49,142 nt of DNA from Clostridia bacterium (GTDB lineage Bacteria; Bacillota; Clostridia; RGIG6154): positions 1 to 49,142 of the forward strand of contig JAZSLZ010000040.1 in the NCBI GenBank assembly GCA_045535635.1, given 5' to 3'. Shown here piece by piece: positions 16,576 to 20,096 of this stretch. The notes beneath the pieces were generated by a model. It had not been told where the DNA came from. It searched no databases and saw only the letters and a list, made by a program, of their open reading frames with translations. The number at the start of each line of letters is the position of its first letter. The stretch's first letter is position 1. The position numbers were made by a program, and so were the translations under genes.

Positions 16576-18561
16576 ATGTCAAAAGTGTTACTTGATTACA
16601 TACTCAAAAAAGAACATCACAAATTCAGAATTGATGCTCCTGAACTTGCAAAGGAGTATAAAGAAAAAGGACTTTCTCCTATTGAGAGAATGACAGACAG
16701 ATTTGAAAGACTTTGTAAAATGGAAACACCTCTTTTTCTTCCTGATGAAAAAATCTGTTTTGTTAGAACAGTTAAAAATATTCCTGATTGCTTCACAGAA
16801 GATGAATGGGCAGAATTAAAAGATAAATATTTTATTCACGAGCTTGGTTACCTTTCAAACCTTTCTCCTGATTATGAGGATATTATTAAGTGCGGACTTC
16901 TTGCAAAAAGAGAAACTGCAAATGAATACCAAAAGCGCTCTATTGATGCTATTTTAGGTCTTGTTGAAAGATATAAAGAAGAAGCAATCAAAGAGGGTAA
17001 AACAGAAATTGCAAAGGTTTTAGACAGAGTTCCTGCTTATGGTGCAACAAGCTTTATTGAAGCACTTCAGTCTTTCAGAATTGTTCATTTTGCGCTCTGG
17101 CTTGAAGGAAACTATCATAACACAGTTGGCAGACTTGACAAATATATGTATCCATACCTTAAGGCAGATATGGAAAAAGGTCTTTATACAGAAGAAACAG
17201 CCTTAGAGCTTGTGGAAGATTTCTTCCTTTCATTTAACAAGGACTCAGACCTTTATGTTGGCGTTCAACAGGGCGATAACGGTCAAAGCTTAATGCTTGG
17301 CGGTGTTGACAAAGACGGAAATGATGTGTTTAATCTTCTTTCAAAGCTTTGTCTTAAAGCAAGTAATAACCTTCTTTTAATCGATCCTAAAATCAATTTA
17401 AGGGTTAATAAAAACACACCAATTGAAACATACATCCTTGGCAGTGAGCTTACAAAAGCAGGTCTTGGTTTCCCACAGTATTCAAATGACGATGTTGTAA
17501 TTGACGCTTTAGTTAAACTTGGATATGACAAAGAGGACGCTTGTGAATATGTTACTGCAGCTTGTTGGGAATTTATTGTTCCAAAGGTTGGTGCTGATGT
17601 GGCAAACATAGGTGCTTTAAACTTCCCTAAAGTAGTTGACAATGCTCTTCATAATCACCTTATATCATCAGAAACTTATGAAGACTTTGCGAAAAAAGTT
17701 GAAAACGAAATAAAAGCAGAATGTGATATTATCTGCTCTAATTTAAAAAATTTATGGTTTGTTCCGTCTCCTTTTATGTCAGTTATGTGTAACAATGAAA
17801 CTATCTGGGACGGTGGAAAATACAATAATTTCGGTATTCACGGAACAGGCGTTGCAACAGGTGCAGACTCACTTGCAGTTATTAAAAAATATGTCTTTGA
17901 AGAAAAGAGCATTTCAAAAGAAGAACTTATTAACGCAGTTGACACAAACTTTGAAAACGCACCTGAGCTTCTTCACAAGCTTCGCTATGAAGCACCTAAA
18001 ATGGGTAATAACATTGACTTTGTTGATGATATTGCTGTATGGCTTTTAGATACCTTTGCAGCTTCACTTGAAGGCAGAAAGAACTGCAGAGGCGGAATTT
18101 ACAGAGCAGGAACAGGTTCTGCTATGTTCTACCTTTGGCATGCAAACGAAATCGGTGCATCTCCTGACGGCAGACTTAAAAAAGAGCCATTTGGCACAAA
18201 CTTCTCTGCAAGTATTTTTGCAGACATCAAAGGTCCTCTTTCAGTTATTAAATCATTCTCAAAGCCTCACTTTGAAAATGCAATAAACGGCGGTCCTTTA
18301 ACACTTGAATTCCATAATTCAATGTTCAAAGACGAAGGCAGCGTTGAAAAGGTTGCTATGCTCGTTAAATCATTTGTTGAGCTTGGCGGACATCAGCTTC
18401 AGCTTAACGCAGTTAACCTTGAAACCTTAAAGGATGCACAGGCACACCCTGAAAAATATCAGCAGTTAGTTGTAAGAATCTGGGGTTGGAGTGCGTACTT
18501 CGTTGAGCTTGACAAAGAATATCAGGATCATGTTATGTTAAGACAGGAATACACATTATGA
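16576..18561 (+). CDS. Glycyl radical enzyme, short (661 aa) PFL2/dehydratase-like family, substrate unknown
   Basis: C-terminal glycyl-radical signature VVRIWGWSAYFVELDKEYQDHVMLR (Gly637, nt 18484-18486). Thiyl loop TAACWEF (Cys330, nt 17563-17565; Glu332). ASPDGR motif. RBS AAGGAG, only 12 nt after the tsaD stop. Confidence 0.85.
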   Translation: MSKVLLDYILKKEHHKFRIDAPELAKEYKEKGLSPIERMTDRFERLCKMETPLFLPDEKICFVRTVKNIPDCFTEDEWAELKDKYFIHELGYLSNLSPDYEDIIKCGLLAKRETANEYQKRSIDAILGLVERYKEEAIKEGKTEIAKVLDRVPAYGATSFIEALQSFRIVHFALWLEGNYHNTVGRLDKYMYPYLKADMEKGLYTEETALELVEDFFLSFNKDSDLYVGVQQGDNGQSLMLGGVDKDGNDVFNLLSKLCLKASNNLLLIDPKINLRVNKNTPIETYILGSELTKAGLGFPQYSNDDVVIDALVKLGYDKEDACEYVTAACWEFIVPKVGADVANIGALNFPKVVDNALHNHLISSETYEDFAKKVENEIKAECDIICSNLKNLWFVPSPFMSVMCNNETIWDGGKYNNFGIHGTGVATGADSLAVIKKYVFEEKSISKEELINAVDTNFENAPELLHKLRYEAPKMGNNIDFVDDIAVWLLDTFAASLEGRKNCRGGIYRAGTGSAMFYLWHANEIGASPDGRLKKEPFGTNFSASIFADIKGPLSVIKSFSKPHFENAINGGPLTLEFHNSMFKDEGSVEKVAMLVKSFVELGGHQLQLNAVNLETLKDAQAHPEKYQQLVVRIWGWSAYFVELDKEYQDHVMLRQEYTL

Positions 18562-19373
18562 CAGGCACAGTATTCGATATAAAAGAATTTTCCCTTCACG
18601 ACGGACCTGGTGGCAGAGTTACAGTTTTTCTTAAAGGTTGCCCTTTAAGATGTAAATGGTGTCACAATCCTGAGGGACTAAAAACAGAAAAACAACTTTT
18701 AGTAAAGACCGCACAATGTACAAACTGCGGTCTTTGCAAAAAGCCATGCGACCATCCTGAGTGTCAGCCTTTCGGCAGATGCATAAAGGTATGCCCTAAA
18801 AATTTAGTCCGTATATGCGGAACTGAATATAAAGCAAAAGACCTTGCAGATAAAATACTTGAATATTCAGACTTTTTTGAATTAAATAATGGCGGTGTTA
18901 CCTTTTCAGGCGGCGAACCTCTTCTTCAACATAAATTTTTAAAAGAAGTTTGCTCACATCTTAACGGTGTTCATAAAGCCATACAAACAAGTGGATATGC
19001 CGATGAAGAAATTTTCAAAAACACAATTAAATGCTTTGACTATGTTATGATGGACATTAAAATAGCAGACAGAGAAAAGCACAAGGAATATACAGGTGTT
19101 TATAACGATGTTATTTTAAATAACTTTGAGTTTCTTAAAAACAGCGGTATTCCCTATATCATAAGAGTTCCACTTATTCCTGATATTACAGATACCGAAG
19201 AAAACTTAAAGGGCATATCAGAAATAGTAGGTTCTTCACCTGTTGAGCTTTTGTCTTACAATCAAATGGCAGGTGCAAAATACGAAAGTGTGGGAATGGA
19301 ATACACCCTCACCAAAGAAAAAAACAAAGAGCCTGATTTAACTATATTCAAAAACGCAATACTTTCAAAATAA
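18558..19373 (+). CDS. Glycyl-radical enzyme activating protein (radical SAM, with ferredoxin-like Cys insert)
   Basis: 271 aa. CPLRCKWCHNPE (CX3CX2C) plus CTNCGLCKKPC and CQPFGRCIKVCP motifs. ATGA overlap with the GRE gene. Confidence 0.9.
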   Translation: MTGTVFDIKEFSLHDGPGGRVTVFLKGCPLRCKWCHNPEGLKTEKQLLVKTAQCTNCGLCKKPCDHPECQPFGRCIKVCPKNLVRICGTEYKAKDLADKILEYSDFFELNNGGVTFSGGEPLLQHKFLKEVCSHLNGVHKAIQTSGYADEEIFKNTIKCFDYVMMDIKIADREKHKEYTGVYNDVILNNFEFLKNSGIPYIIRVPLIPDITDTEENLKGISEIVGSSPVELLSYNQMAGAKYESVGMEYTLTKEKNKEPDLTIFKNAILSK

Positions 19374-19398
19374 GACTTTGCCATATTGCAAAGTCTTA
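19371..19398. terminator. Bidirectional hairpin terminator between the activase gene and the convergent small ORF
   Basis: TAAGACTTTGC / GCAAAGTCTTA, 11-bp stem, 6-nt loop. Includes the activase stop codon. Confidence 0.6.
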
Positions 19399-19403
19399 TT
19401 AAT

Positions 19404-19568
19404 TTATAATATAAAAAAGTTGTATCCTATGTCTAATTCTTTCAGGTGCGGATATTTCTCAACTTCCTCTTGCCACATTTCTGCCATTATTAAATGCACT
19501 CTGTATTGTTTTTTTATTTTTGGTGTAGGGTTGGTAAGAGGTTTGTATTTTTTTCTGTTTAATTTCAT
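19404..19568 (-). CDS. Hypothetical small basic protein (54 aa)
   Basis: Below the ORF-track size cut-off. My translation: MKLNRKKYKPLTNPTPKIKKQYRVHLIMAEMWQEEVEKYPHLKELDIGYNFFIL. RBS GGAGA 7 nt upstream of the ATG. Lies directly downstream of the leader/terminator at 19584-19732. No family recognised. Confidence 0.3.
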   Translation of the reverse strand: MKLNRKKYKPLTNPTPKIKKQYRVHLIMAEMWQEEVEKYPHLKELDIGYNFFIL

Positions 19569-19583
19569 AAATTTTCTCCAATT

Positions 19584-19609
19584 AAAAAAGTGCGCCCCAA
19601 GAGACGCAC
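19584..19609 (-). terminator. Intrinsic terminator / attenuator at the 3' end of the structured RNA
   Basis: On the minus strand: GGTGCGTC-TCTTGG-GGCGCAC followed by TTTTTT. Confidence 0.5.
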
Positions 19610-19630
19610 CGAAAAAGTGTTTCTCCTTTG

Positions 19631-19732
19631 TTGCTACACAAATAAATCTTCACAAGCGAGGATTATTAATAGAGAAAACACCTTTTACCAAGGTATTCCC
19701 TCACTTGTGAATTTTATTCATTTGTGTAGCAA
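19631..19732 (-). ncRNA. Candidate structured RNA (cis-regulatory leader or sRNA), class not recognised
   Basis: 102-nt extended hairpin. Outer 13-bp perfect stem (19631-19643 with 19720-19732), inner ~13-bp stem (19649-19661 with 19699-19711), apical ACCTT-GGTAA-AAGGT mini-hairpin. Flanked by a consensus promoter and a terminator. Confidence 0.45.
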
Positions 19733-19736
19733 AATT

Positions 19737-19765
19737 ATTATAACACAACATAAAAGTATTTGCAA
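19737..19765 (-). promoter_or_regulatory. Near-consensus sigma-A promoter driving the structured RNA
   Basis: On the minus strand: TTGCAA (19765-19760), 17-nt spacer, TGtTATAAT (-10 at 19742-19737). The predicted start falls at the base of the hairpin. Confidence 0.55.
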
Positions 19766-19766
19766 G

Positions 19767-19809
19767 AAAAACAAAAGAGGCTGTTTAAAAACTCAGTTTT
19801 AAACAGCCT
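19767..19809 (-). terminator. Rho-independent terminator of the GT2-DUF1292 operon
   Basis: 13-bp stem AGGCTGTTTAAAA / TTTTAAACAGCCT, followed on the minus strand by CTTTTGTTTTT. Confidence 0.75.
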
Positions 19810-19826: not shown

Positions 19827-20096
19827 TTAAAATATTTCAGGATGGTTTTTCTTATATGTTTCGAAGATTTTTTCGATTATGTCAAGTTCGTAGACAATTT
19901 CAAACATTTCTTCGTCATACTCATCTTCACCCAGATATTTTACGATTACATACTCGTTTATACCTTTTGTTAATGGATATAAAACTGCATAGCTTTCGCC
20001 ACCGTCTTCTATAATATCCACTATTTCAAATTTGATTTCGCTTCCGTCTTCGTCCTGAAGAATAAGAAGATTTTCATCATTTACTTTTTTACTCAT
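19827..20096 (-). CDS. DUF1292 family protein
   Basis: 89 aa, acidic. The LILQDEDGSEIKFEIVDIIEDGGESYAVLYPL pattern is typical of DUF1292. Confidence 0.75.
   Translation of the reverse strand: MSKKVNDENLLILQDEDGSEIKFEIVDIIEDGGESYAVLYPLTKGINEYVIVKYLGEDEYDEEMFEIVYELDIIEKIFETYKKNHPEIF

Follow-up and report, generated by a model that had tools for sequence, protein, structure and literature searches.

The window analysed here is a 49,142-nt stretch of contig JAZSLZ010000040.1 from a Clostridia bacterium (GenBank assembly GCA_045535635.1). On its minus strand, between positions 19765 and 19404, a promoter is followed by a predicted structured RNA of 147 nt ending in an intrinsic terminator, a ribosome binding site (RBS) and a 54-codon open reading frame (ORF). 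The RNA element is a member of a large, previously uncatalogued RNA family of Clostridia, and its neighbouring segments can form conserved, mutually exclusive helices directly in front of the ORF. With a probability of roughly two in three, this family member is a cis-acting transcription attenuator that forms the 5' leader of a one-gene unit. An initial annotation of the locus had proposed either an attenuating leader or a stand-alone small RNA (sRNA) of ~147 nt; every feature that it described was found at its position on the minus strand, and the terminator/antiterminator platform and the location directly before ORFs support the proposal. Beyond that annotation, the element proved to be one of four copies in its genome and part of a family hundreds strong, and the 22-nt linker between hairpin and terminator proved to be the switching strand.

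Attenuation of transcription by competing RNA folds is an established mechanism; the remarkable point here is that so abundant a family has no entry in Rfam 15. All sampled genomes of one bacterial family have it, as do about a quarter of those sampled from the class, and a single genome can hold 16 copies or more. The genes behind the leader would make up one co-regulated set, encoding mostly unannotated small proteins and surface proteins of uncultured Clostridia from gut and rumen, and the leader gives a handle on genes otherwise without functional context. Its five-segment chain would be a compact natural multi-state RNA switch, the local hairpin giving way to a long-range helix that starts from a toehold.

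A conserved three-helix RNA in a multi-copy family

Three helices, P1, P2 and P3, make up a 98-nt hairpin that begins at the predicted transcription start (G19730, the foot of P1). In the window, P1 has 15 bp including one G-U pair, where a perfect outer stem of 13 bp had been annotated, P2 has 13 bp, and P3 has 9 bp, in place of an annotated apical mini-hairpin of 5 bp. Four unpaired nucleotides lie between P1 and P2, on the 5' side only, and a 14-nt bulge lies between P2 and P3, on the 3' side only. Folding of positions 19740-19580 gave -63 kcal/mol versus -28.6 ± 3.5 kcal/mol for 200 dinucleotide shuffles (z = -9.85), none of which was as stable.

By BLAST, the window element had no close copy in its own genome. 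Homologues of ~70% identity, spanning promoter, hairpin and terminator, were recovered from other genera and families. Every one of them folded into the hairpin of three helices and the terminator, and P2 differed in sequence each time. A covariance model (R1) was built from three close copies and used to align 19 copies, from which model R2 was made; the window RNA scores 177 bits with R1 and 153 bits with R2. Sixty further copies were fetched, and 115 hits were aligned for the family statistics given below. Model R2 found four copies in the window's own genome, the element in all 18 genomes of the window's order, which consists of a single family (1-15 copies each), and the element in 41 of 151 genomes of the class (38/136 high-quality genomes; 27/107 genera). 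Among 147 genomes taken from the phylum's other classes, it was found in none. Up to 16 matches per genome were obtained in the class search, in which 20 candidates were scored per genome, so these copy numbers are lower bounds (at least 16). The best IUPAC patterns recovered just 5-37 of the 115 known copies. Near-identical DNA was present in bovine, sheep and other gut metagenome runs, and a human faecal contig bears a copy of 99 bits. RadA of the window's organism was most similar, at ~56% identity, to that of Clostridia and Oscillospiraceae MAGs, a placement among Clostridia that goes no further than the class.

The architecture is uniform across the family: P1 measures 12-17 bp, P2 11-17 bp and P3 8-11 bp, the internal loop has 4-10 nt in its 5' strand and 0-1 nt in its 3' strand, and the 3' bulge has 14-16 nt. 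The conservation and compensatory change sought in relatives of the hairpin were both present. In the 115-copy alignment, the 46 modelled pairs of P1, P2, P3 and the terminator hairpin (T1) were 91.9% paired versus 61.8 ± 0.5% in column shuffles, figures that are generous in that the copies are related and the model itself guided the alignment; slid controls were 36-51% paired. Compensatory changes occurred in all 46 pairs, and the covariation score was 0.767 versus 0.212 in shuffles, with 0/500 shuffles reaching the observed value. Lower P1 (helices 1-2) was 98.8% paired with compensatory changes at every pair, P2 (helices 5-7) was 90-94% paired with changes on both sides at all pairs, and T1 was 95.3% paired. 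In an unfitted MAFFT alignment of 12 copies, P1 and T1 were already supported and 9/21 pairs were compensated.

The annotation had matched the fold to no known riboswitch class, and this held: at gathering score, Rfam 15 gave no match in the whole window, and at E ≤ 10 the element gave only chance-level matches to miRNA, snoRNA and sRNA hairpins, far below threshold. Among 20 further member loci, Rfam 15 matched nothing at the element and one drum RNA and three tRNAs elsewhere. The motif was not found described in the literature searched (including PMC8040213, PMC2864571 and PMC5737381), whose supplementary motif lists could contain it.

Mutually exclusive pairings and a proposed switch

The leader can be read as a chain of segments in the order X-Y-X'-T5'-T3', five in all, each able to pair with its neighbour. 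X:Y gives the apical hairpin P3, Y:X' a long-range pseudoknot helix of ~15 bp (PK), X':T5' an antiterminator hairpin (AT), and T5':T3' the terminator T1. X' has as partners either Y (PK) or the terminator 5' strand and loop (AT), and Y has either X (P3) or X' (PK). In the window, AAAAGGUGUUUUCUCU pairs with GGAGAAACACUUUUU to give PK at -15.3 kcal/mol, and AT amounts to -9.7 kcal/mol.

Across the 115 copies, the mean energy of the duplex between apical strand and linker was -17.0 kcal/mol for cognate pairs, -12.2 kcal/mol for non-cognate pairs and -8.0 kcal/mol with shuffled linkers, and the cognate linker ranked in the top 10% for 54% of copies. An ungapped 6-nt core of PK, adjoining an A-run/U-run, had at least five of six pairs in 68/114 copies versus 33% of non-cognate pairs, with 58 distinct Y sequences and 59 distinct X' sequences among the cores. 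The GGAG:CUCU part of PK is left single-stranded by P3 and so constitutes a natural toehold; in the window, the CUCU of segment Y is unpaired within the 14-nt 3' bulge.

The antiterminator was assessed on transcripts cut before T3', in which T5' pairs with the linker over at least 4 nt in 111/115 copies and over at least 6 nt in 105/115. The nascent linker plus T5' folds at -10.8 kcal/mol versus -5.9 kcal/mol with a shuffled linker (p = 3e-20), and the cognate X':T5' duplex has -7.95 kcal/mol versus -6.52 kcal/mol for non-cognate duplexes (p = 3e-7). In an unfitted alignment, the 12-pair AT helix was 73.7% paired versus 30-57% when slid. Two other candidate pairings were rejected. Pairing of Y with T3' and the U-tail as antiterminator showed no covariation (AUGCA-type Y segments occur with GCAC-type tails), and pairing of the P1 5' strand with T5' fails in the window's own copy.

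In the proposed mechanism, a strong constitutive promoter would start the RNA at the foot of P1, and PK would nucleate at the GGAG:CUCU toehold left free by P3. In the OFF state, PK would form and sequester X', T1 would form, and a terminated RNA of ~147 nt would result. In the ON state, Y would be locked in P3, X' would capture the emerging T5', T1 would not form, and polymerase would enter the ORF. The choice between PK and P3 is presumably the regulated step. Mean energies are -8.4 kcal/mol for P3, -17.0 for PK, -12.2 for AT and -15.7 for T1, which gives -32.7 kcal/mol for OFF (PK + T1) versus -20.6 kcal/mol for ON (P3 + AT).

Candidates for the trigger are a small molecule, a protein, and simply the speed of polymerase or its pausing at the U-run. 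Few unpaired positions are strongly conserved, and PK is very stable without any ligand; both points argue mildly against small-molecule binding, and would favour a protein or kinetic trigger over a small-molecule aptamer. A kinetic trigger could consist in a pause of polymerase at the U-run that separates X' from T5'. A broader and distinctly more tentative proposal is that the family is a new class of riboregulator through which one global signal acts on a regulon of small uncharacterised proteins and surface proteins that, in Clostridia of gut and rumen, reaches 16 or more units in one genome. The signal might be a metabolite or second messenger bound at pseudoknot and junction, or polymerase speed, sensed as a toehold-mediated strand-displacement race between PK and AT; terminated, tandem and ORF-less RNAs might in addition work in trans, for instance through titration of that factor. 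If this were true, the family would be both sensor and regulator.

Genomic context and rival explanations

Reading the minus strand of the window from 19900 to 19300, the order of features is the terminator of an upstream DUF1292 gene, the promoter, the hairpin, the linker, the terminator, the RBS and the 54-codon ORF (Table 1). The annotated consensus promoter was borne out with a score of 10/12, an extended -10 element and an RNA start 6 nt past it. The intrinsic terminator and the RBS with its ORF were likewise confirmed, as was a hairpin shared with a convergent gene for a glycyl-radical enzyme activase. The upstream terminator hairpin would insulate the unit from transcription coming from upstream. 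The RBS lies directly past the U-run and the ORF has no promoter of its own, so that expression would be via read-through, that is, the ON state of the proposal.

Table 1. Features of the leader unit and its borders in the window.
Feature	Position	Strand	Remarks
Upstream terminator-like hairpin and T-run	19778..19809	-	ends DUF1292 gene (19827-20096)
Sigma-70-type promoter	19737..19765	-	-35 TTGCAA 19765-19760; spacer 17 nt; extended -10 TGtTATAAT 19745-19737 (TG 19745-19744, TATAAT 19742-19737)
Whole leader RNA, 147 nt	19584..19730	-	predicted start G19730 to end of U-run
P1 5' strand, GCUACACAAAUGAAU	19716..19730	-	partner 19647-19633
P1 3' strand, AUUUAUUUGUGUAGC	19633..19647	-	partner P1 5' strand
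P2 5' strand	19699..19711	-	partner 19661-19649; hypervariable sequence, pairing kept
Segment X (P3 5' strand), GAAUACCUU	19690..19698	-	P3 -8.5 kcal/mol
Segment Y, AAAAGGUGUUUUCUCU	19671..19686	-	5' part is P3 3' strand; entire segment pairs with linker (PK)
Linker, 22 nt, AACAAAGGAGAAACACUUUUUC	19611..19632	-	junction AACAA and segment X' (19626-19612)
Intrinsic terminator T1	19589..19610	-	T5' from 19610, loop CUUG, T3' to 19589; -12.4 kcal/mol; U-run through 19588-19584
Shine-Dalgarno GGAGA	19575..19579	-	4 nt past last U of RNA, 6 nt before ATG
54-aa basic ORF	19404..19568	-	ATG at 19568; no Pfam match
13-bp downstream hairpin	19369..19400	.	between 54-aa ORF and convergent activase gene (18558-19373)

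The 54-aa ORF is conserved within the genus only, with homologues in 3/18 genomes of the family. Comparison with the G002 copy gave 16, 10 and 27 substitutions at first, second and third codon positions, a third-position bias which indicates that the ORF is probably translated. Converging on it from the plus strand (16576-19373) are genes for a 661-aa glycyl-radical enzyme of the PFL type and its 271-aa radical-SAM activase, which share the terminal hairpin; this hairpin looks like a bidirectional terminator. An ORF of 110 aa on the opposite strand (19378-19710, plus) overlaps both the small ORF and the RNA; most likely it is spurious, a product of the AT-rich, palindromic sequence.

The same layout recurs across the family. 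A promoter scoring at least 9/12, with its -10 element ending 6-7 nt before the first base of the RNA, was present in 99/114 copies, 96 of these with the extended TG and 94 with a 17-nt spacer. In 86/115 copies a co-oriented Shine-Dalgarno sequence and start codon open an ORF of at least 35 aa at 14-120 nt past the RNA, a few of these 86 ORFs being mechanical artefacts (one, for example, lies inside the next tandem unit); in 54/115 copies the ORF start is only 14-26 nt away. The U-run is then separated from the RBS by only ~5-10 nt, which leaves no room for a promoter, so these close ORFs would be transcribed solely by read-through of T1. Pairing of X, Y or the P1 5' strand with the start region of their own downstream ORF was no better than with those of others (differences ~0, p > 0.4), and only generic CUCU:GGAG complementarity was present between leader and ORF start. 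As no segment pairs specifically with its own ORF start, control appears to be exerted on termination and not on translation.

Downstream proteins with Pfam matches are surface proteins, small regulators and antitoxin-like proteins, and include Cu_amine_oxidN1 (5), BspA-type LRR_5 (5), MazE/AbrB (4), RelB (2) and HicA (1), besides HTH_3, bPH_1, TerB, SHOCT, SLH with trypsin, RCC1 and GLUG. Those without a match are mostly of 36-145 aa, and several sequence families recur among them across genomes, including MxDYKKLY... (37-65 aa), MNIKLELLRE... (76-96 aa) and a Cys-rich family, MIIDGPTGIEL... (83 aa), at loci L041, L074, L066, L109, L070, L095, L100 and L131; L045, L011, L079 and L108; and L076, L120 and L129. 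Searches of the ESM Atlas and for homologues returned only clusters of "hypothetical protein" for these recurrent small proteins. At three loci (L095, L100 and L131), a second Y-like, anti-Shine-Dalgarno-like element (e.g. AUGAUGCAUUCUCC) lies between T1 and the true RBS, ahead of small ORFs of the MDxYxEMY type, which suggests that some copies are also controlled at translation.

Other copies depart from the one-gene layout. Eleven tandem arrays of 2-4 complete units were found, each unit with its own promoter and terminator (L127:2001-2663; L122:1762-2645; also L049, L081, L096, L011, L110, L066, L063, L119 and L091). Within the arrays only the last unit precedes an ORF, and 13 units stand upstream of another unit. 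A drum RNA (RF02958, 76 bits; L127:1673-1790) lies ~210 nt upstream of a triple array. About ten copies are without any ORF; in these, the stretch past T1 is the complement of X', the junction and the 3' strand of P1 in that copy and is followed by a second strong terminator. Loci with such extensions are L089:2001-2330, L083, L057, L060, L099, L102, L069, L113, L125, L078, L084 and L042. The duplexes formed by the extensions have -24 to -38 kcal/mol for cognate versus ~-15.5 kcal/mol for non-cognate pairs, and cognate duplexes lie below -22 kcal/mol in 12/115 copies. Judged by this complementarity, a read-through transcript could rearrange into a single long hairpin that has T1 at the tip. 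Together, the tandem, ORF-less and second-Y copies suggest an additional, independent role for the terminated RNA or for a long isoform of it.

Metagenome searches of ruminant-gut runs covered contigs, and two RNA and two DNA runs yielded fragmentary contigs of related strains. Several distinct contigs match just the terminator module (19583-19621) and diverge on both sides, a pattern that would fit the presence of many family members in rumen communities.

Several of these findings weigh against a cis-acting attenuator. The copies are mutually related, and the shuffle statistics accordingly overstate independence; covariation of AT beyond conserved complementarity is modest (0.348 versus 0.294), and the number of AT pairs changed on both sides does not exceed that in shuffles (222/500). 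Strongly conserved unpaired positions are few, unlike in typical small-molecule aptamers. OFF is more stable than ON in 113/115 copies, and with OFF thermodynamically favoured, ON must be kinetic or stabilised by a factor. PK has to coexist with ~28 bp of P1 and P2 while the connecting junction measures 5-7 nt, so a sharp bend at the asymmetric internal loop would be needed; judging from helix lengths only, P1 and P2 would fold back on each other so that the linker reaches the apical loop. The downstream genes have no obvious common function (58/86 are without a Pfam match), the contigs from the RNA runs gave no useful coverage of the window locus, and a purely cis role leaves the 11 tandem arrays, with their 13 units standing ahead of another unit, and the ~10 ORF-less copies unexplained.

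These last copies would favour a stand-alone trans-acting sRNA gene of ~147 nt, whose downstream ORF exploits leaky read-through, or, in a weaker form, a terminated leader with a second role in trans. Complete tandem units, each with promoter and terminator, and copies with a self-complementary 3' extension and second terminator in place of an ORF would suit such a gene, and with termination as the thermodynamic default the short RNA should be abundant. This alternative is nonetheless considered unlikely. A Shine-Dalgarno sequence and start codon 14-26 nt past the U-run in 54/115 copies, with no room for a promoter, is too regular for unrelated sRNA genes; the conserved X':T5' antiterminator would be purposeless in a constitutive sRNA; and the variable Y and X' cores covary internally and are not kept as a common seed. 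Hfq (PF17209) was found in 2/5 carrier genomes and not in three genomes that are 97-99% complete and hold 11-16 copies, and CsrA (PF02599) in 0/5, which does not fit a sponge of the CsrB/RsmZ type; both proteins are thereby ruled out as universal partners. On the attenuator reading, the terminated RNA may still also act on its own, as the tandem and ORF-less copies would allow.

The remaining alternatives account for single aspects of the family. By analogy with the multi-copy c-di-GMP riboswitches before surface-protein genes of Clostridia, the family might be a new class responsive to c-di-GMP, given its copy number, its pseudoknot-based architecture and the secreted or surface products downstream (five Cu_amine_oxidN1, five LRR_5, SLH with trypsin, RCC1 and GLUG proteins). 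This is very improbable in view of GGDEF (PF00990), which was found in only 10/18 family genomes while the RNA occurs in all 18: five carriers at least 91% complete, i.e. 5/13 of the high-quality carriers and the window's genome among them, have no GGDEF match, and the c-di-GMP-I and -II models (RF01051, RF01786) do not match the element. Repetitive or mobile DNA of the MITE type, or a chance hairpin beside an ordinary terminator, with no function at the RNA level, would agree with a multi-copy family whose palindromic part is matched on both strands and whose neighbouring genes are accessory and variable. It can hardly be reconciled with copies that are only ~70% identical within a genome and show compensatory changes in every helix, with a strand-specific layout (promoter on one side, terminator and RBS on the other) or with the fold z-score of -9.85. 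No plasmid matched the element, and the two matching "UNVERIFIED Bacteriophage sp." records look, from their gene content, like bacterial chromosome fragments: they hold genes for ClpB, YicC, methionine gamma-lyase and peptidases, and one of them (MT835845.1; L217:1-8238) encodes ClpB, a metallo-beta-lactamase-fold protein, YicC, methionine gamma-lyase and M42 peptidases. An RNA partner in a pair resembling type III toxin-antitoxin systems would share with toxIN the order promoter, RNA, terminator, protein, and the toxin-antitoxin-associated families downstream (MazE/AbrB, RelB and HicA) point the same way. That, too, is highly improbable for a single structured unit of 150 nt in place of short tandem repeats, followed by diverse proteins of 36 to more than 650 aa that include surface proteins and have no Pfam resemblance to ToxN, CptN or TenpN.

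Comparison with known regulatory RNAs

In common with riboswitches in general, the element has a structured domain supported by covariation and a position in the 5' untranslated region (5' UTR) with a mutually exclusive terminator and antiterminator; a shared ligand-related function was not found among the 86 downstream proteins. SAM-I/S-box, the pbuE adenine switch and T-box leaders are terminator/antiterminator platforms of Firmicutes. The new family resembles them as a 5' leader with a structured sensor, in which one strand is common to the sensor helix and the antiterminator and an intrinsic terminator immediately precedes the RBS. It differs in switching by a 15-bp helix between apical bulge and 3' linker and not by the closing P1, in an extra competitor, X, which holds Y when PK is absent, and in having no Rfam match or known ligand and few conserved unpaired nucleotides. 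T-box leaders are marked by a stem I specifier loop, a T-box sequence with a UGGN bulge and aminoacyl-tRNA-related downstream genes. The P3 loop of the new family is often UGGU or UGGC but variable (AGGC, CGGU, UGAU and others); no T-box match was given by Rfam in the window or the 20 member loci, and the downstream genes are unrelated to amino acids.

The trp leader attenuator works by 1:2, 2:3 and 3:4 pairings. Like it, the new family has neighbouring segments with mutually exclusive pairings and the terminator last; unlike it, the family has five segments instead of four, its first decision would be a pseudoknot across a 28-bp rod, and it has no leader peptide and, on inspection of the sequences, no conserved start codon following the internal GGAG. 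Pseudoknots are also the basis of the preQ1, SAM-II and c-di-GMP-II riboswitches, and in both cases the pseudoknot sequesters the strand that drives the other expression state; in the new family it is much longer (~15 bp), variable in sequence and thermodynamically very stable without ligand (-17 kcal/mol).

A set of RNA motifs from gut Firmicutes, all of them listed in Rfam, are likewise structured and end in an intrinsic terminator, but they are rarely found in 5' UTRs, where the new family mostly lies, and none of them matches it. The pR'-6S RNA-tR' late cassette of phage lambda, in which the Q protein acts at the promoter, shares with the new family a design in which a strong promoter, constitutively active, yields by default a short RNA that ends at a terminator, and in which the genes further on need read-through. 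Unlike that cassette, the new family is not phage-associated but chromosomal and multi-copy, and carries an RNA antiterminator of its own.

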